From NCBI RefSeq assembly GCF_003334815.1, contig NZ_QOWO01000029.1: a stretch of DNA of 52,109 nucleotides; one strand, 5' to 3'. A program made the translations under genes and the position numbers. The notes beneath the pieces are model-generated. The model was not told the DNA's origin, did not search any database, and was given only the letters and a program-made list of their open reading frames with translations. This document shows positions 981 to 16,787 of the stretch, piece by piece; position 1 is the stretch's first letter, and every line of letters begins with the position of its first letter. Origin of the DNA: Escherichia coli. Its GTDB lineage: Bacteria; Pseudomonadota; Gammaproteobacteria; Enterobacterales; Enterobacteriaceae.

Positions 981-3221
981 TCAGAAGTGGGTGTTTACGC
1001 TCATATACCACGTACGTCCCGGCTCGTTATAGGTATACGCCCCGGCACCGGCGATATAGTTGGCCCCTGCCAAATCGCCCGTGGTCTGGGCATTACCCGC
1101 ACGCCACAAACGTTTGTCGAACAGATTGTCCACGCCGCCGGTCAGACTGACATTCTTCGTCACATCCCAGGTCGCGCTCAGGCCAACAATGCTGTAAGGA
1201 CTAATTTCTTTGGTTTCCGGTCCAACCGCTGGCTGACCTTTATAGTTGTACTTCTTCGGCTGCTGCTTGCCGTACCAGGTGAAGGTCGTTTGCATCGACA
1301 AATCTTCCCGTGCCTGCCAGCTCAGCGTTGAGTTCAACGTATACTCCGGGATGATCGACAAACGGTCGCCCGTGGTTTTGTTTTCACTCTTCAGCATATA
1401 AGTGATGTTATTGGTCCACATCACCGTTTCGCTAACCGGTACGTTTAACGATCCTTCCAGACCTTCAACCACCGCTTTCGGCACGTTATCCCACTGATAG
1501 AGATCGGTGCCGACTGCGTTTTGCCCTACAGCCACATAGCCCGCTTCAATCTTATTGCGATAATCGTTACGGAACCAGGTGACGCCCGCCAGCCACCCGT
1601 CGCGTTTGAACTCCAGACCAATCTCTTTGTTGATGCTGGTTTCTACTTTCAGGTCATCGTTACCTTGCAGATAGCAGCCGCCCGCGCTGGCATAGCAACC
1701 CTGACCTTTACTGTAGAGAATGTAGTTCGGGTTAGTCTGGTACAGGCTCGGCGCTTTATAAGCACGGGCGATGCCCATTTTCAGCGTGAAGTCATCGCCT
1801 AAACCTTGCGATATGTTCAGCGCCGGGCTCCAGTTATTGCCGACAATACTGTGATGATCGAAACGCAGCCCCGGCGTTACGATGGTGCTGTCAGTCAGCT
1901 CCATGTTGTTTTCGGCAAACAGCGAGAAAATTTCTGCTTTTGAATACGGGCTACGGTCGGTGGTACTCACGCCATCAATAGCGCCACCGGTATTCGTTCC
2001 GGTCAGTGCCTGGGTGTTGGAACTTAAGTCCTTCATCCGTTGCTGATTCCACTCCGTACCCAGCGTCAGCGTCTGGTTAACGAGGAAATCAATCGGCAGG
2101 TTAACTTCGCTGTGCAGCATCACGTCATCAAGATCGATATCGACGAAATCCTGTGTCGCTTTTTCGTTAAATTTCCCTTCGGTACCGCCCGCCAGACCTT
2201 CCGGAATACGCGAGTTACGGGTGTGTTCGTACTGCACCCAGTTGCTGGTGGTCACGCCGTTATCCCAGCCACCGTTCCAGGTCAGCGCGTAGTTCTGGCG
2301 ATACAGACGGTTGGTTTCATCGCCATATTTCGAGCGGGTATAGGAATCGGAGTTGGTATTCTGGGTGTCGCCCGCATACAGGTTACCCTGGCGGCTGTAA
2401 CCTGCTTCCAGTTCCAGCGATTGCAATGGCGCGAAATCCCAGCGCACCACGCCATTAATATCTTTGTTGATTACCCCTTCGCGCCCGGCTGGTAACGTCG
2501 TGGCATACGTTCCGGCACGCGCGGACTGATGGCCCTGGTTGATATCCCACGCGTCAGCCTGGGTTTTGTCGAGGTTGCCATACAAACGGAAGCTGAATTC
2601 GTCGCCCAGCGGACCGGTCAGGCTAAAGTTAGTGCGTTTGGTGGCACCTTCCTCTTTATGTTCTGGCGCATTGAAATATGCGTCCCAGGAGCCGTGCCAC
2701 TCGCCGCTGCCTTTTTTGGTAATGATGTTAACCACGCCGCCCGCCGCGCCGTTGCCATAACGCGCAGCTGCCGGACCACGCAGAACTTCAATACGTTCAA
2801 TCATTTCAGGTGGCACCCAGGAAGTATCACCACGGGTATCGCGCTCGCCACGCCAGCCCTGACGCACCGAGTTACGGCTGCTTACCGGCTTGCCGTCAAT
2901 CAAAATCAGCGTGTTTTCCGGACCCATACCGCGAATATCAATCTGTCGGTTATTCCCACGCTGACCACTGGTGGAGTTACCGGTCAGGTTAACGCCTGGC
3001 ATGGTACGGATGATCTCCGACACATCGCGGGCAACCGGGTTTTTGCGGATTTCATCTGCGGTGATGGTCGAAACGCCAGGCGCCTGTAAGTTCTGCTCGG
3101 CGGCGGTAACGACAATAGTATCGTCATGTGAAACAGGAGTATCGGTCGGCTCTTGTGCCTGCGCTACCCCATAAATCCCCAGATTGACCAACAAGGCCAG
3201 GGAATGAATCTTCTTGTTCAT
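981..3221 (-). CDS. fepA: TonB-dependent ferric enterobactin outer-membrane receptor (746 aa)
   Basis: Signal peptide MNKKIHSLALLVNLGIYGVAQA, TonB box DTIVVTA and C-terminal ...YMSVNTHF with terminal Phe. Start placed at the internal ATG at 3221 rather than the track's extended start. Confidence 0.95.
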   Translation of the reverse strand: MNKKIHSLALLVNLGIYGVAQAQEPTDTPVSHDDTIVVTAAEQNLQAPGVSTITADEIRKNPVARDVSEIIRTMPGVNLTGNSTSGQRGNNRQIDIRGMGPENTLILIDGKPVSSRNSVRQGWRGERDTRGDTSWVPPEMIERIEVLRGPAAARYGNGAAGGVVNIITKKGSGEWHGSWDAYFNAPEHKEEGATKRTNFSLTGPLGDEFSFRLYGNLDKTQADAWDINQGHQSARAGTYATTLPAGREGVINKDINGVVRWDFAPLQSLELEAGYSRQGNLYAGDTQNTNSDSYTRSKYGDETNRLYRQNYALTWNGGWDNGVTTSNWVQYEHTRNSRIPEGLAGGTEGKFNEKATQDFVDIDLDDVMLHSEVNLPIDFLVNQTLTLGTEWNQQRMKDLSSNTQALTGTNTGGAIDGVSTTDRSPYSKAEIFSLFAENNMELTDSTIVTPGLRFDHHSIVGNNWSPALNISQGLGDDFTLKMGIARAYKAPSLYQTNPNYILYSKGQGCYASAGGCYLQGNDDLKVETSINKEIGLEFKRDGWLAGVTWFRNDYRNKIEAGYVAVGQNAVGTDLYQWDNVPKAVVEGLEGSLNVPVSETVMWTNNITYMLKSENKTTGDRLSIIPEYTLNSTLSWQAREDLSMQTTFTWYGKQQPKKYNYKGQPAVGPETKEISPYSIVGLSATWDVTKNVSLTGGVDNLFDKRLWRAGNAQTTGDLAGANYIAGAGAYTYNEPGRTWYMSVNTHF

Positions 3222-3380
3222 TGTTTTATTCCTGCATTTTTGCCACGAATTGCAACTGTCGGGCATGGTCGTCATCAACACGACGCATCCCGCTACCGCG
3301 AAAACCTTTGATCCTGAAAGACACGCAGTGCAGTTGGTTAATTAATGTCCGCGCTTCCCACGGCGCGCCATTACGCTATT

Positions 3381-10926: not shown

Positions 10927-11915
10927 TTTTTGCGAGACTCCTGAATTAACAAGACGATAAGGTAAATACCGCCGAGGCTGACGGTAACGACGCCAACCGG
11001 AAGTTGATACGGCATAAACAGTTGTTGGGCGCAGAGATCGGCCGCCAGCAGTAACAGCGCCCCGCATAGCGCCGCCTGGGTTAGCCCCCAGCGAGCGGTG
11101 CCGCTAATGCGTCGGGCAATGTGCGGTGCGACTAAAGCAATAAAGGAAATCGGCCCGGCAAGCGCTGTTGCCGCAGCGGTAAGCACCACTGCAACCAGCA
11201 TCATTAACAGACGCGAACGTTCGACGCTGACGCCCAGCGCACACGCGGTATCATCGCCCATTTCCAGCAAGCGCATCCGGCGTACCAGTAAGGCGGCGGC
11301 AATGAGCATCAATATAATGATGGGTGCGGAAGGCGAGGTTTTTGCCCACGTCAGGCCGTTGAGCGATCCGGCATTCCACAAACCTGCTGTTAGCGCCGTT
11401 TCTAAAGACGCTTTCAGCAACAGCCAGGTATTAAAGGCCACCAGCATGGCGCGAACGCCGATACCGATAATAATCAACCGAAAGGTGTCGATGCCGTTGC
11501 GCCAGGCGAGCAGCCAGACCAGCAGCGAAGTGACAATGCCGCCCACCATTGCTGACAGCGCGATAGCCGTCAGGTCCTGACCAAACAGCACCATCGCCAC
11601 CAGCACGCCGCTCCACGCCCCGGTGTTAAAGCCCATTACGTCAGGGCTGCCGAGCGGGTTACGCATCAGCGACTGAAAAATCGCGCCACTGACGCCCAGT
11701 GCTGCGCCAATCAACAGCGCCATCAGCACGCGTGGTAAACGCCATTCGGTGACCACCATCGTCATACTGCGCGGCGCATCGCCCATCAGCGCGGCGAATA
11801 CCTGCGAGGTTTCCAGCGTGACGGCACCGCTGCGTAATCCCCAGATACCTGCAACCACACAGGCGGAAACCAGCAGCAAACAGGTGATGAGTAATCGGCG
11901 AGAGACGTAAATCAT
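10923..11915 (-). CDS. fepG: Ferric enterobactin ABC transporter permease (330 aa)
   Basis: Polytopic membrane ORF of the FecCD family, 4-nt overlap with fepC. Confidence 0.9.
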   Translation of the reverse strand: MIYVSRRLLITCLLLVSACVVAGIWGLRSGAVTLETSQVFAALMGDAPRSMTMVVTEWRLPRVLMALLIGAALGVSGAIFQSLMRNPLGSPDVMGFNTGAWSGVLVAMVLFGQDLTAIALSAMVGGIVTSLLVWLLAWRNGIDTFRLIIIGIGVRAMLVAFNTWLLLKASLETALTAGLWNAGSLNGLTWAKTSPSAPIIILMLIAAALLVRRMRLLEMGDDTACALGVSVERSRLLMMLVAVVLTAAATALAGPISFIALVAPHIARRISGTARWGLTQAALCGALLLLAADLCAQQLFMPYQLPVGVVTVSLGGIYLIVLLIQESRKK

Positions 11916-12916
11916 GCACCACCTCGCGTTTTACGTCGCACGAGGAAGATCAGCACCGGTGCACCAATAAACGCACTGACCACAGAAACGCGCAGTTCGC
12001 CGGGCACAATCACCCGCCCGATGATATCGGCAAACAGCAGCAGGGCAGGGGTAGCAAGTAGCGTGACGGGCAGCGACCAGCGATGATCGGCACCCACCAG
12101 CCAACGCGCCATATGCGGCATCATCAGGCCAATAAAGGCAATCGGGCCAACTATTGCCGTCGCACTACCACAAAGCACGGTAATCGCCAGCAGACCAATC
12201 AACTGTGTGCGCGCCACGCGACTGCCCAGCGCCGTCGCGGTGTCGCTGCCGAGGCTCAAACTGTTCAGCGCGCGACTCAGTAATAGCGCAGTTGCTCCGG
12301 CGATCAGCACCGGGATCAGCACCACTTTTAAGGTATGTAGATTGCGAATATCCAGCGAACCGGCTTGCCAGAAACGCAACTGATCGTAGACGTCAGGATT
12401 AAGCAGGGCGATGCCGCTGGTCAGTCCTTCCAGCACCGCCGCCAGCGCCACGCCCGCCAGGGTTAAACGCACCGGACTTAACTGCCCGCCGCCCTGACTG
12501 CCGGTAAAGGCAACAATCAATGAGGCCACCAGCGCCCCGGCGAAGGCCATCGCCAGTTGTTCCTGCGCGGAAGAGTAACCAAACAGCGCCGCACCCAGCA
12601 CAATGGCAAAGCTGGCTCCGGCGTTCACGCCAAGCAAGCCGGGGTCGGCAAGTGGGTTTCGGGTGAGGGTTTGCATTAACGCCCCGGCAAGGCCAAGCGC
12701 GCCGCCTGCCAGTAAACCGGCAAGGGTACGCGGCAGCCGCGCGTCGAGCACGATGGTGCAGTCGGCGCTCTGGCAGGTGCCGGAGAAGGCCTCCAGCACT
12801 ACGGAAGCGGGGAGTGATTTTGCCCCAATGAGCAGGCTTAATGCCGTCGCGATAATCAGTAATAACAGCAATCCGGGCACGGCAATGGCGCGTGTCACGG
12901 CAACAGAACCAGACAT
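11912..12916 (-). CDS. fepD: Ferric enterobactin ABC transporter permease (334 aa)
   Basis: Polytopic membrane ORF overlapping fepG by 4 nt. Start chosen at MSGSVAV; an in-frame ATG four codons upstream (12928) is an alternative. Confidence 0.88.
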   Translation of the reverse strand: MSGSVAVTRAIAVPGLLLLLIIATALSLLIGAKSLPASVVLEAFSGTCQSADCTIVLDARLPRTLAGLLAGGALGLAGALMQTLTRNPLADPGLLGVNAGASFAIVLGAALFGYSSAQEQLAMAFAGALVASLIVAFTGSQGGGQLSPVRLTLAGVALAAVLEGLTSGIALLNPDVYDQLRFWQAGSLDIRNLHTLKVVLIPVLIAGATALLLSRALNSLSLGSDTATALGSRVARTQLIGLLAITVLCGSATAIVGPIAFIGLMMPHMARWLVGADHRWSLPVTLLATPALLLFADIIGRVIVPGELRVSVVSAFIGAPVLIFLVRRKTRGGA

Positions 12917-12927
12917 ACGAACTTCCA

Positions 12928-12955
12928 TGATAATGAAATTAATTATCGTTATCGA
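12928..12955. promoter_or_regulatory. Fur box in the divergent fepD/entS promoter
   Basis: gataatgaaattaattatcgttatc is a close match to the Fur consensus. Confidence 0.65.
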
Positions 12956-13026: not shown

Positions 13027-14277
13027 ATGAATAAACAATCCTGGCTGCTTAACCTCAGCCTGTTGAAAACGCACCCGGCGTTTCGCGCAGTATTCCTCGC
13101 TCGTTTCATCTCAATTGTGTCTCTGGGTTTGCTCGGCGTCGCGGTGCCGGTGCAGATCCAGATGATGACACATTCCACCTGGCAGGTGGGGCTTTCGGTG
13201 ACGCTGACCGGCGGCGCGATGTTTGTTGGCCTGATGGTCGGCGGTGTGCTGGCGGATCGCTATGAGCGCAAAAAAGTGATTTTGCTGGCGCGCGGCACCT
13301 GTGGCATTGGCTTCATTGGACTGTGCCTTAATGCACTGCTGCCGGAGCCGTCATTGCTGGCAATCTATTTACTTGGTTTATGGGATGGTTTTTTCGCATC
13401 GCTTGGCGTTACGGCGCTATTGGCGGCGACACCAGCACTGGTAGGGCGTGAAAACTTAATGCAGGCCGGGGCGATCACCATGTTGACCGTGCGTCTGGGG
13501 TCGGTGATTTCGCCCATGATTGGCGGTTTATTGCTGGCGACCGGTGGCGTAGCCTGGAACTACGGGCTGGCGGCGGCGGGCACGTTTATTACCTTGCTAC
13601 CGTTGTTAAGCCTTCCGGCGTTGCCACCGCCACCGCAGCCGCGTGAGCATCCGTTGAAATCATTACTGGCAGGATTTCGTTTTCTGCTTGCCAGCCCGCT
13701 GGTGGGCGGGATTGCGCTGCTGGGTGGTTTATTGACGATGGCGAGCGCGGTGCGGGTACTGTATCCGGCGCTGGCTGACAACTGGCAGATGTCAGCGGCA
13801 CAGATTGGTTTTCTCTACGCGGCGATCCCGCTCGGCGCGGCTATTGGTGCGTTAACCAGCGGGAAGCTGGCACATAGTGCGCGACCAGGGTTATTGATGC
13901 TGCTCTCCACGCTGGGATCGTTCCTCGCCATTGGTCTGTTTGGCCTGATGCCGATGTGGATTTTAGGCGTGGTTTGTCTGGCGCTGTTCGGCTGGTTGAG
14001 TGCGGTCAGCTCGTTGCTGCAATACACAATGCTGCAAACGCAAACCCCGGAAGCGATGTTAGGGCGGATTAACGGTTTGTGGACGGCGCAGAACGTGACG
14101 GGCGATGCCATAGGCGCGGCGCTGCTGGGTGGTTTGGGCGCGATGATGACACCGGTTGCTTCCGCAAGCGCGAGCGGTTTTGGTTTGTTGATTATCGGCG
14201 TGTTGTTATTGCTGGTGCTGGTGGAGTTGCGACATTTTCGCCAGACGCCGCCGCAGGTGACAGCGTCCGACAGTTAA
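13027..14277 (+). CDS. entS: Enterobactin exporter, MFS transporter (416 aa)
   Basis: Twelve-helix-like hydrophobic ORF in the expected position and length. Confidence 0.9.
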
Positions 14278-14280
14278 TGC

Positions 14281-15237
14281 TTAAAACAGCGCCTTAAGCC
14301 TATCCAGCACTTGCATGGCGCTGTAGTAATCCAGACGGAACGTCTCGGTTCCCAGCGCATAAACCTGCTTGTTTTGTACTGCAGGCAGGTGCGCGAGCAG
14401 CGGATTAGCATAAATAGCATCGGCATCTTTCTGATCACCGGCGAACAGGAATAGTGACTCGCCATTTAACCCTGCAGCCAGATTTTCCCCACCAAGCTGA
14501 ATGATGTCATGGCGTTTACCCTGACTTTGGCTGGCATTTAACCCTGCGGGTAACTTCGCCAGCGTAAAGCCGAGTTGTTCCAGCATCTGCCCTTGTGCTG
14601 ATTCTGGCGTCCAGAGATTGGCACTGTGTGCAGCGGCAGTATAGACAATGGCAGTGACCGGCTGCGGCGGTAATTTGATTTGCTCTTTCGCCGCCGCCAG
14701 TTGCTTATCAAACTGCGCAATCCGCTCTGCCGCTTGTTTCTCATGCCCGGTAATTTCGCCAAGTTGCGTTAACAGCGACTGCCAGCTTTTGTCGTCGTAA
14801 TTGATGATTAATGTCGGGGCGATGGTGGAAAGCTGATCATACAGTGCCAGCGCCGAATCCCCGCCGGTTGCGCTAATTAAAATCAGATCCGGCATTTGCG
14901 CGGCAACGGCTTCGGCGCTCGGTTCGCCGATATAGAGCCGTTGCAGTTTGCGTTCTTTCGCCACCTTGCTCCACTGGCGTAAAAAGCCCTGGTCATCCGC
15001 GACGCGGTTATTCGGCGTGGTCGCGCCGCTGGCGATCACCGGAGCATCAATCGCCAGCAGTGAGCCGGTCAGGGTGACGCTGGTGGAAACAATACGCTGC
15101 GGCTGGCTTTCCAGTGTATGTGTGCCACGGCTGTCAGTAATCTGACGCGGCCAGTCAGCGGCCTGAACTGCGGCTATTCCTGAAAGCAAAAGTCCTGTTA
15201 ATAGAAGGGCGTTGCGGTAGAGCGGGGCGAGTCTCAC
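14281..15237 (-). CDS. fepB: Periplasmic ferric enterobactin binding protein (318 aa)
   Basis: Signal peptide followed by a periplasmic binding protein fold. Only 3 nt separate it from the convergent entS stop. Confidence 0.9.
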
Positions 15238-15302
15238 AAATCAGCTTCCTGTTATTAATAAGGTTAAGGGCGTAATGACAAATTCGACAAAGCGCACAAT
15301 CC

Positions 15303-15342
15303 GTCCCCTCGCCCCTTTGGGGAGAGGGTTAGGGTGAGGGGA
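15303..15342. repeat. GC-rich small intergenic repeat, copy A, in the fepB leader
   Basis: gtcccctcgcccctttggggagagggttagggtgagggga. A degenerate inverted copy lies at 15367-15406 and a close inverted copy at 22775-22816. Confidence 0.55.
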
Positions 15343-15366
15343 ACAGCCAGCACTGGTGCGAACATT

Positions 15367-15406
15367 AACCCTCACCCCAGCCCTCACCCTGGAAGGGAGA
15401 GGGGGC
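15367..15406. repeat. GC-rich small intergenic repeat, degenerate inverted copy B, in the fepB leader
   Basis: aaccctcaccccagccctcaccctggaagggagagggggc is partly complementary to copy A, so the pair could fold into a long stem in the fepB 5' UTR. Confidence 0.45.
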
Positions 15407-15562
15407 AGAACGGCGCAGGACATCACATTGCGCTTATGCGAATCCATCAATAATGCTTCTCATTTTCATTGTAACCACAACCAGATGCAACCCCGAGTTG
15501 CAGATTGCGTTACCTCAAGAGTTGACATAGTGCGCGTTTGCTTTTAGGTTAGCGACCGAAAA

Positions 15563-15585
15563 TATAAATGATAATCATTATTAAA
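15563..15585. promoter_or_regulatory. Fur box in the divergent fepB/entC promoter
   Basis: ataaatgataatcattatt is a near-perfect match to GATAATGATAATCATTATC, about 30 bp upstream of entC. Confidence 0.75.
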
Positions 15586-15611: not shown

Positions 15612-16787
15612 ATGGATACGTCACTGGCTGAGGAAGTACAGCAGACCATGGCAACACTTGCGCCCAATCGCTTTTTCTTTATGTCGCCGTACCGCAGTTT
15701 TACGACGTCAGGATGTTTCGCCCGCTTCGATGAACCGGCTGTGAACGGGGATTCGCCCGACAGTCCCTTCCAGCAAAAACTCGCCGCGCTGTTTGCCGAT
15801 GCCAAAGCGCAGGGCATCAAAAATCCGGTGATGGTCGGGGCGATTCCCTTCGATCCACGTCAGCCTTCGTCGCTGTATATTCCTGAATCCTGGCAGTCGT
15901 TCTCCCGTCAGGAAAAACAAGCTTCCGCACGCCGTTTCACCCGCAGCCAGTCGCTGAATGTGGTGGAACGCCAGGCAATTCCGGAGCAAACCACGTTTGA
16001 ACAGATGGTTGCCCGCGCCGCCGCACTTACCGCCACGCCGCAGGTCGACAAAGTGGTGTTGTCACGGTTGATTGATATCACCACTGACGCCGCCATTGAT
16101 AGTGGCGTATTGCTGGAACGGTTGATTGCGCAAAACCCGGTTAGTTACAACTTCCATGTTCCGCTGGCTGATGGTGGCGTCCTGCTGGGGGCCAGCCCGG
16201 AACTGCTGCTACGTAAAGACGGCGAGCGTTTTAGCTCCATTCCGTTAGCCGGTTCCGCGCGTCGTCAGCCGGATGAAGTGCTCGATCGCGAAGCAGGTAA
16301 TCGTCTGCTGGCGTCAGAAAAAGATCGCCATGAACATGAACTGGTGACTCAGGCGATGAAAGAGGTACTGCGCGAACGCAGTAGTGAGTTACACGTTCCT
16401 TCTTCTCCACAGCTGATCACCACGCCGACGCTGTGGCATCTCGCAACTCCCTTTGAAGGTAAAGCGAATTCGCAAGAAAACGCACTGACTCTGGCCTGTC
16501 TGCTGCATCCGACCCCCGCGCTGAGCGGTTTCCCGCATCAGGCCGCGACCCAGGTTATTGCTGAACTGGAACCGTTCGACCGCGAACTGTTTGGCGGCAT
16601 TGTGGGTTGGTGTGACAGCGAAGGTAACGGCGAATGGGTGGTGACCATCCGCTGCGCGAAGCTGCGGGAAAATCAGGTGCGTCTGTTTGCCGGAGCGGGG
16701 ATTGTGCCTGCGTCGTCACCGTTGGGTGAGTGGCGCGAAACAGGCGTCAAACTTTCTACCATGTTGAACGTTTTTGGATTGCATTAA
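15612..16787 (+). CDS. entC: Isochorismate synthase (391 aa)
   Basis: Chorismate-binding enzyme family. Start placed at [11 protein letters not shown]. Confidence 0.92.

Follow-up and report, generated by a model that had tools for sequence, protein, structure and literature searches.

A BoxC composite in the fepB leader of Escherichia coli: a probable lineage-specific insertion

The two GC-rich inverted repeats in the leader of Escherichia coli fepB are a type A and a type B BoxC unit. With the conserved spacer between them, and with flanks that form imperfect inverted termini, they make up a single palindromic composite of 186 bp, which is present at this site in some E. coli genomes and absent from others. 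The composite is probably the product of a one-time, lineage-specific insertion into the start of the fepB leader. The event would have taken place on the branch that led to K-12-like E. coli, at a site ~+2 to +4 in the fepB transcript, and would have extended the leader from an ancestral ~31 nt to 217 nt. Once transcribed, the element would have to form a long 5'-proximal hairpin, presumably a by-product of the DNA palindrome and not an evolved device for controlling fepB. The ancestral sequence that flanks the insertion would hold the signals for both kinds of fepB control: the Fur boxes and the promoter for iron, and the AU-rich enhancer, the Shine-Dalgarno sequence and the GUG for translation. 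This explanation is supported because the polymorphism has a discernible polarity, because the same element occurs in unrelated intergenic regions, because the ribosome-binding site is spared, and because published findings on the function of the repeat family are negative. (The DNA analyzed, referred to as the window, is a stretch of 52,109 nucleotides of contig NZ_QOWO01000029.1, assembly GCF_003334815.1; coordinates are those of the window unless MG1655 is named.)

The repeat units and their family

Both units lie between fepB (14281-15237, minus strand, 318 aa) and entC (15612-16787, plus strand), in a region that is 100% identical to positions 624511-624884 of the MG1655 chromosome (NC_000913.3; the offset from the window is +609273). 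A repeat search of this intergenic region places the inverted arms at 15300-15340 and 15369-15409 (41 nt, 76% complementary, spacing 28 nt), with nested shorter inverted pairs and with an outer pair at 15273-15296 and 15429-15452. A pattern derived from the unit has three matches in the window, where shuffled sequence yields an expectation of none; the TMECO consensus (CCCTCNCCCN3-6GGGNGAGGGN3GGGNGAGGG) has exactly two, at 15306-15340 on the plus strand and at 15369-15403 on the minus strand, again with none expected. The preliminary description of this DNA, which had set the repeats at 15303-15342 and 15367-15406, about 25 bp apart, located them essentially correctly.

Unit A (15306-15341, plus strand; CCCTCGCCCCTTTGGGGAGAGGGTTAGGGTGAGGGG) is of type A: its blocks run C-G-G, its second loop is TTA, and its G-rich part holds four G-tracts. 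Unit B (15368-15403, minus strand; CCCTCTCCCTTCCAGGGTGAGGGCTGGGGTGAGGGT) has CTG as the corresponding loop and provides the G-rich arm of the fepB mRNA, also with four G-tracts (GGGUGAGGGCUGGGGUGAGGG in the 5' arm of the mRNA hairpin). Unit B had been taken for a degenerate copy of unit A; it is instead a distinct type B unit, the constant partner of type A. The spacer between them (15342-15367; AACAGCCAGCACTGGTGCGAACATTA), which is conserved in an alignment of sister copies, would form the apical loop region of the hairpin.

The BoxC family has been known since 1992. BoxC repeats were reportedly treated by Bergler et al. in 1992 and by Bachellier et al. in 1999, and PIT elements, it is said, by Hoyne and Maher in 2000/2002. 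BoxC, PIT and TMECO share one consensus, CCCTCNCCC-N3-6-GGGNGAGGG-N3-GGGNGAGGG, of which MG1655 has 23 copies (Holder et al. 2015, PMC4666352). In the same catalogue (its Table 1), no. 7 (type A mm) lies at 624579-624614 in the sense orientation and no. 8 (type B) at 624676-624641 in the antisense orientation, and with the offset of 609273 these are exactly the positions of units A and B. Five inverted pairs are listed for MG1655, and in each of them a type A unit, with a TTA loop, is joined to a type B unit, with a CCG-like loop (PMC4666352); the fepB pair, with TTA in unit A and CTG in unit B, fits this pairing rule. Unit A also appears as HPGQ 17, at fepB/entC with its midpoint at 624603 (Kaplan et al. 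2016, PMC5100583), and BoxC has been recovered as a known E. coli family elsewhere (Cozzuto et al. 2008). The units are, in short, already known: at least two published catalogues list them at these positions (Holder et al. 2015; Kaplan et al. 2016).

That the 40-bp unit belongs to a family, as had been proposed together with a genome-wide search for it, is confirmed by such a search, in which it proves to be dispersed in E. coli genomes. The 114-nt region that contains the pair has matches in 5409 of 5426 complete E. coli genomes, at between 1 and 28 places in each (median 16). In a contig scan, the 18-mer GAGGGTTAGGGTGAGGGG from unit A occurs at at least 120 loci in very diverse phyla; among the matches listed, most have a complementary C-rich arm just upstream, across a variable loop. 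The spread over phyla agrees with the published count of more than 260 genomes that harbor the family (Holder et al. 2015, PMC4666352). The fepB pair conforms to BoxC/PIT/TMECO in every testable feature: in consensus, in catalogued position, in its dispersed, multi-copy and intergenic occurrence, and in the pairing of A with B. With regard to function, the family is not associated with any gene class, orientation or distance, is active neither as a promoter nor as a terminator, and leaves RNA polymerase unaffected (PMC4666352).

A discrete insertion and its empty site

The units are part of a larger segment that is present or absent as a whole. Its boundaries come from gapped pairwise alignment of K-12 with the short alleles of O157:H7 F7349 and W224N: compared with the empty site, the insertion occupies 15265-15453, that is, 186 bp plus a second copy of the trinucleotide TAA, and the boundary can be drawn equally at 15265-15450 or at 15268-15453. 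The left copy of TAA (15265-15267) is also part of the ancestral AU-rich leader, and the right copy (15451-15453) would be +2 to +4 of the fepB transcript. Inside the TAA copies, a left flank (15268-15299) and a right flank (15404-15450) enclose the two units and the spacer. The left flank, as defined by alignment of the family, contains ATGACAAA, which it shares with sister copies and, as a weak match, with the left flank of a BIME-1; the right flank emerges from the repeat search and from folding, which pairs it at the foot of the hairpin. An imperfect inverted copy of 15273-15296 is found at 15429-15452 (24 nt, 71% complementary), and these segments would serve as the terminal inverted repeats of the element.

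The 575-nt intergenic query is found at full length in 2755 of 5426 complete E. coli genomes, and elsewhere as two pieces that together span 389 bp. The two alleles differ by one sharply bounded indel of 186 bp (15265-15450), which has a TAA on either side, and exactly 186 bp are missing from every short-allele genome inspected. The site is empty in ~2670 E. coli genomes (~49%). Strains K-12, C and W have the long allele, and O157:H7 and the other strains examined have the short one; the intergenic lengths are accordingly 374 bp in K-12 versus 188 bp in O157:H7 F7349 and W224N.

The polarity of this polymorphism is given by outgroup-type contigs, which are defined by a FepB identical to the Citrobacter koseri, Klebsiella michiganensis or Pseudescherichia vulneris protein. 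Their spacers measure 187, 187 and 175 bp, respectively, and contain no BoxC unit. The short leader is kept in all three types, and the C. koseri junction (GAAAATGAGAAGCATTAAC..CATTAATAACAGGA) closely matches the empty site of E. coli. None of the four outgroup-type loci examined has the insertion. Because these loci are empty and the C. koseri junction matches, it is the empty site that is ancestral, and the K-12 allele arose by insertion.

Of the genomes that carry the insertion, 2502 have it with an identity of 99% or more, which suggests that it goes back to one insertion event. (Small internal changes do occur: strain 10_253, for example, lacks 6 bp, GGGTTA, and EC31 has 7 bp in duplicate.) A single origin is probable, and the mechanism would have been transposition-like. 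The TAA repeat at the junctions could represent a duplicated target site; with a length of 3 bp, in AT-rich DNA and at one site, it could also be due to chance.

Sister composites that are 80-87% identical to the fepB copy, with the same order of flank, unit A, spacer, unit B and flank, are found at alx-sstT, ygfF-gcvP, yggL-yggN and yijF-gldA. The same composite thus recurs in unrelated intergenic regions, in either orientation, and at alx-sstT and ygfF-gcvP the locus is likewise polymorphic. Where a clean empty site might be looked for, all four loci have BIMEs, partial deletions or rearrangements on a larger scale, and for this reason the TAA repeat at fepB stays a single observation.

Promoter, leader and predicted hairpin

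The fepB promoter region (15449-15490, minus strand), as read from the sequence, comprises a -35 hexamer TTGCAT (15485-15490) and a -10 hexamer GAAAAT (15462-15467) at a spacing of 17; the hexamers are conserved in four genera, including the C. koseri, K. michiganensis and P. vulneris types, and score below the threshold of a simple promoter scan. They imply a transcriptional start at about 15454, in agreement with the leader of 217 nt that Hook-Barnard, Brickman and McIntosh (2007, J Bacteriol 189:4028) reportedly assign to fepB. Position 15454, which follows from that length, is what we take to be the start site. Since transcription would start there, the insertion would begin at +2 to +4 of the transcript, and the repeats would indeed lie, as first described, between the fepB promoter and the fepB start codon, inside the leader.

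The same description had placed the repeats next to a Fur-regulated promoter shared by fepB and entC. In fact each gene has its own Fur-box-like site, that of fepB at 15449-15470 and that of entC at 15561-15582, so the promoter is not a common one; the pair of Fur boxes emerges as an inverted repeat in the repeat search. The fepB site contains the Fur-box-like 19-mer GAAAATGAGAAGCATTATT (15449-15467), the last bases of which come from the end of the insertion. A search of the window with a strict Fur consensus, at three mismatches or fewer, returns only 12929-12947; by eye, the fepB and entC boxes have four mismatches each.

On the downstream side of the insertion, the ancestral leader (15241-15264, minus strand) contains the AU-rich enhancer, which extends into the TAA at 15265-15267, and the Shine-Dalgarno sequence AGGAAG (15245-15250). 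This part is present in the short alleles and at the C. koseri-type locus. The 2007 study by Hook-Barnard et al. reportedly credits the AU-rich sequence as the main determinant. Its function as a translational enhancer is also attributed to that study by a later paper (PMC7769764).

The long and stable stem-loop that had been proposed for the fepB RNA, with folding as the check, is borne out by prediction. The fepB-sense RNA from 15450 to 15238 has a minimum free energy of -93.2 kcal/mol, compared with -68.2 +/- 4.6 for shuffled sequences (z = -5.43; 0 of 200 shuffles as stable), in ViennaRNA, which as run models neither triplexes nor G-quadruplexes. Minimum-free-energy and ensemble folds give a predicted hairpin at 15275-15449 (minus strand), that is, leader nt 6-180. 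Single units folded alone as DNA are no more stable than their shuffles (z -0.2 to -1.0); in the folding model, the exceptional stability comes only from the long-range pairing of unit A with unit B.

The predicted hairpin ends 37 nt before the start codon and leaves the enhancer, the Shine-Dalgarno sequence and the GUG outside. With transcription starting at 15454, the predicted accessibility of all three is similar in long and short alleles. A terminator scan finds no terminator-like site and no U-tract after the hairpin, and a promoter scan finds no promoter-like site within 15265-15453.

The hairpin as a regulatory element

The preliminary description had suggested translational or stability control of fepB by the repeats. 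That the hairpin acts in cis within the fepB 5' UTR, as a regulator of either translation or mRNA stability, is unlikely, and the genomic comparison lends the idea no support. In the predicted fold, the hairpin sequesters neither the ribosome-binding site nor the enhancer, to which the leader study (Hook-Barnard et al. 2007) reportedly gives the main credit. A dedicated regulatory role is not supported because the AU-rich enhancer and the Shine-Dalgarno sequence lie outside the hairpin, as judged from sequence and predicted fold.

5'-Terminal stem-loops are known to stabilize E. coli mRNAs, that of the ompA leader being an example. The structure predicted for fepB is very stable and lies ~5 nt from the 5' end, and might accordingly act, for instance, as a stem-loop that stabilizes the message against RppH and RNase E, or as an RNase III processing site. 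Yet it is missing from ~49% of E. coli and from the four outgroup-type loci, and therefore is not part of the core control circuit of fepB. The four G-tracts of the 5' arm would be suited to a G-quadruplex/hairpin switch, and a G-quadruplex/hairpin/duplex switch has been proposed for the HPG motif (Kaplan et al. 2016, PMC5100583); on the other hand, purine-motif triplexes do not form in RNA (PMC4666352), and the same element resides in unrelated intergenic regions in either orientation. Conservation can be cited on the side of regulation, in that the long allele, with ~51% of genomes, is highly conserved where it is present. Both mild selection and clonal inheritance would fit this frequency and this conservation.

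The features of a conserved cis-regulatory 5' UTR RNA are lacking at fepB: there is no conservation across strains or species, no Rfam family, no predicted sequestration of the ribosome-binding site and no terminator-like site. (A search of Rfam 15 at a permissive E-value returns only sub-threshold noise of the miRNA-hairpin kind, the best score being 28.6 bits compared with a gathering score of 72.)

Insertion of a by-product hairpin, which we infer to be functionally near-neutral, is the better account of these findings. The word neutral is to be taken guardedly, because a hairpin 5 nt from the 5' end could change the half-life of the mRNA or be cut by RNase III, and an incidental effect of the insertion on mRNA stability or processing is conceivable.

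Structure-induced deletion

The presence/absence polymorphism might also be read in the opposite direction. According to Holder et al., the units are hotspots of instability due to non-B-DNA structure (triplex, G-quadruplex or cruciform), and the short fepB alleles would then be structure-provoked deletions. This is very unlikely to be the origin of the short alleles, although the reading does not lack a foundation. In vitro, single-stranded TMECO oligonucleotides fold into very stable intrastrand triplexes of the purine motif, and among 56 E. coli strains the TMECO loci vary far more than control intergenic regions do; no association of TMECO with mobile elements was seen, and the polymorphism was read as instability (PMC4666352). 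In the same work, the triplex was detected neither in vivo nor in duplex DNA. The small internal changes at fepB in 10_253 and EC31 and the polymorphism at alx-sstT and ygfF-gcvP are of the kind that instability would generate, but every short allele examined has the exact ancestral sequence with one TAA, which is not to be expected of an induced deletion. The unit-free short leader of three other genera, with the close match at the C. koseri junction, makes absence the ancestral condition. The outgroup sequences thus argue that the fepB polymorphism is due to insertion and not to the structure-induced deletion favored in the literature; instability may explain the later decay of the element, not the main polymorphism.

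The 69-aa open reading frame

An ORF of 69 aa (15241-15450, minus strand, TTG start) exists within the transcribed leader, and it can hardly encode a real small protein or leader peptide: its low-complexity product (LPPLPSRVRAGVRV...PHPNPLPKGARG) is read-through of the repeat, as was supposed from the start, K-12 has no gene annotated there, the extent of the frame is exactly that of the insertion, so that half of E. coli lacks it, and a TTG at ~nt 5 of the transcript leaves no room for a ribosome-binding site, with most of the frame inside the hairpin.

Implications for fepB

There is little new biology in the repeat pair itself, since the family and the units are known. What is new is the setting of the pair, a palindromic insertion of 186 bp that starts at ~+2 of the fepB transcript. 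The "217-nt structured leader" of K-12 is, to the extent of 86%, a repeat insertion, and about half of E. coli, including O157:H7 strains, use the ancestral leader of ~31 nt, which is made up essentially of the AU-rich enhancer and the Shine-Dalgarno sequence. Post-transcriptional results obtained with fepB of K-12 (the enhancer, pairing with RyhB, mRNA decay) should consequently be checked before they are extrapolated to strains with the short allele. The natural long and short alleles also constitute a ready-made test of the effect of a BoxC palindrome on an mRNA.

Comparison with known elements

The fepB pair has the three-block C-G-G consensus, the intergenic siting and the variability between strains that characterize BoxC, PIT and TMECO, and at the level of the unit there is no difference. 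What it adds is a discrete 186-bp insertion with flanks and a repeat of TAA at the junctions. Compared with TMECO as catalogued, it is distinguished by its location at +2 of an mRNA leader that has been studied, and by an empty site that is ancestral. The HPG1/HPG2 motifs (Kaplan et al. 2016, PMC5100583) are also represented here, unit A having their invariant core GGGAGAGGGTTAGGGTGAGGG and conserved C-rich 5' flank; that paper is concerned with a DNA regulatory switch near genes, its topic being neither insertion polymorphism nor the fepB RNA leader.

The leader that Hook-Barnard et al. studied, of 217 nt, has the same K-12 sequence, with the enhancer and the Shine-Dalgarno sequence (15245-15267) immediately 3' of the insertion. 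The difference lies in how it is divided: 186 of the 217 nt are repeat insertion, and the enhancer belongs to the ancestral short leader.

BIME-1 (RIP) elements have a comparable layout, of flank, unit, spacer, inverted unit and flank, whereas their repeated units are REP and those of the fepB element are BoxC. No REP consensus is found inside 15265-15453 (the REPs of the window are at ~845-941, ~3280 and ~22846-22875), and the fepB element is for that reason not a BIME. The BIME-1 at 815-980 of the window has terminal motifs, GACTGATGACAAA... and ...CACTTTGTCAACAATCT, in common with the sister BoxC composites. The copies at sstT, gcvP and yggL match these flank motifs with p <= 0.04; the fepB copy keeps only ATGACAAA as a weak trace of the BIME-1 flank (score 9, shuffle p = 0.09). 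At yggL-yggN and yijF-gldA, moreover, the slot that holds a BoxC composite in one strain holds a REP-pair BIME in another.

It is a doubtful suggestion that BoxC composites are BIME-1-type mosaics in which BoxC has replaced REP and, as a separate matter, that the fepB copy is a lineage-specific 5' UTR variant that alters mRNA stability or processing, and with it the capacity for ferric-enterobactin uptake, between lineages. If the mosaic reading were true, it would imply a common mechanism of insertion or replacement, for example RAYT-like or by recombination-based exchange of cassettes. Bachellier et al. (1999) reportedly describe a "new composite element" that includes BoxC, and the relation between BoxC and BIMEs may therefore already be on record. 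In a literature search for BoxC together with BIME, and for fepB together with RNase III, the only relevant papers were Holder 2015, Kaplan 2016 and Cozzuto 2008.

The remaining comparison is with miniature elements of the MITE type, such as ERIC/IRU in transcribed leaders. Like these, the fepB element is palindromic, shorter than 200 bp, multi-copy and intergenic, is present or absent at orthologous sites, and would give rise to a long RNA hairpin when co-transcribed. It differs from them in its weak terminal inverted repeats (71%) and in a 3-bp junction duplication seen at a single site. We know of no cognate transposase or other mobilizing activity for BoxC elements. The MITE-like nature of the fepB element is thus supported in part, by a discrete insertion and by the empty site that goes with it.

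Composite loci and their possible exchange with BIMEs

At two unrelated loci, yggL-yggN and yijF-gldA, a BoxC composite (inverted type A and B units with their flanks) and a BIME alternate in one chromosomal slot. The composite is the minority allele at each, being found in 65 E. coli genomes at yggL-yggN and in 641 at yijF-gldA; the remaining genomes have a REP-pair BIME in its place. (The retrieved loci compared were L008:594-829 vs L134/L135:190-430 for yggL-yggN, and L009:560-797 vs L136/L137:188-462 for yijF-gldA.) At yggL-yggN, both alleles carry GATGACAAA... and ...TTTGTTATCAATCT as their outer flanking motifs, and the alternation of BoxC with BIME looks like cassette exchange within a common shell. 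The window itself has a classical BIME-1/RIP element at 815-980, made up of REP Y, an AT-rich spacer with IHF-site-like sequence, and REP Z1, and adjoining a 766-aa ORF (981-3281). The flanks of the sstT, gcvP and yggL BoxC composites match the motifs at the two ends of this BIME-1, GACTGATGACAAACGCAAAA and CACTTTGTCAACAATCT, with shuffle p <= 0.04.

The BoxC composite in the fepB leader varies between strains. In strain 10_253 (L005:351-819) a 6-bp deletion, GGGTTA, removes one G-tract from unit A, and in strain EC31 (L004:351-832) the left flank has a 7-bp tandem duplication, AATGACA; variants of this insertion are also found among sequence matches H84 and H85. Besides fepB, the K-12 composite loci ygfF-gcvP and alx-sstT are also polymorphic: in the L139/L140 comparison, alignment at ygfF-gcvP is confined to the gcvP side in about 2400 genomes. 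The alx-sstT locus lacks about 79 bp in some genomes and is longer by about 220 bp in others.

Other elements of the window

A third BoxC-like unit, CCCTCGCCCCACCGGGGAGAGGGTTAGGGTGAGAGGG, lies on the - strand in a site that spans 22776-22877 together with the REP directly following it (at about 22845-22877), between a 701-aa ORF, which K-12 coordinates identify as cstA, and the small ORF that comes next. Its last block has an additional AG, and it therefore fails the TMECO consensus and is absent from Table 1 of Holder et al. (PMC4666352). The best match to the Fur-box consensus in the window, GATAATGAAATTAATTATC (12929-12947; 3 mismatches), falls between divergent ORFs 11912-12928 (-) and 13027-14277 (+), which by K-12 synteny is the fepD-entS control region.

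Occurrence within and beyond E. coli

Among the matches listed, the unit A 18-mer in distant bacteria, such as the Gammaproteobacteria MAG BWSM_30 (L081-L088) and a Planctomycetaceae MAG (L030-L032), is embedded in longer near-identical repeats of at least 110 nt, which include inverted A+B-like pairs whose spacers are not the one found in E. coli. In BWSM_30 the listed repeats are frequently at contig ends (L081-L088), which suggests that the assembly was broken by them.

The BoxC family is found in 5409 of 5426 complete E. coli genomes and occupies a median of 16 places per genome (range 1-28); some strains, ATCC 25922 and several clinical isolates among them, have only 1-3 places, which are partial. 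This spread suggests lineage-specific expansion or loss. A BoxC-like match of 38-44 nt (H55, H139, H163, H179, H195) is located at 1627-1664 of the 154.7-kb E. coli plasmid NZ_CP074792.1, and about 37 of the collection's 79,555 BoxC places are plasmid-borne, whereas Holder et al. (PMC4666352) reported no association of plasmids with BoxC/TMECO.
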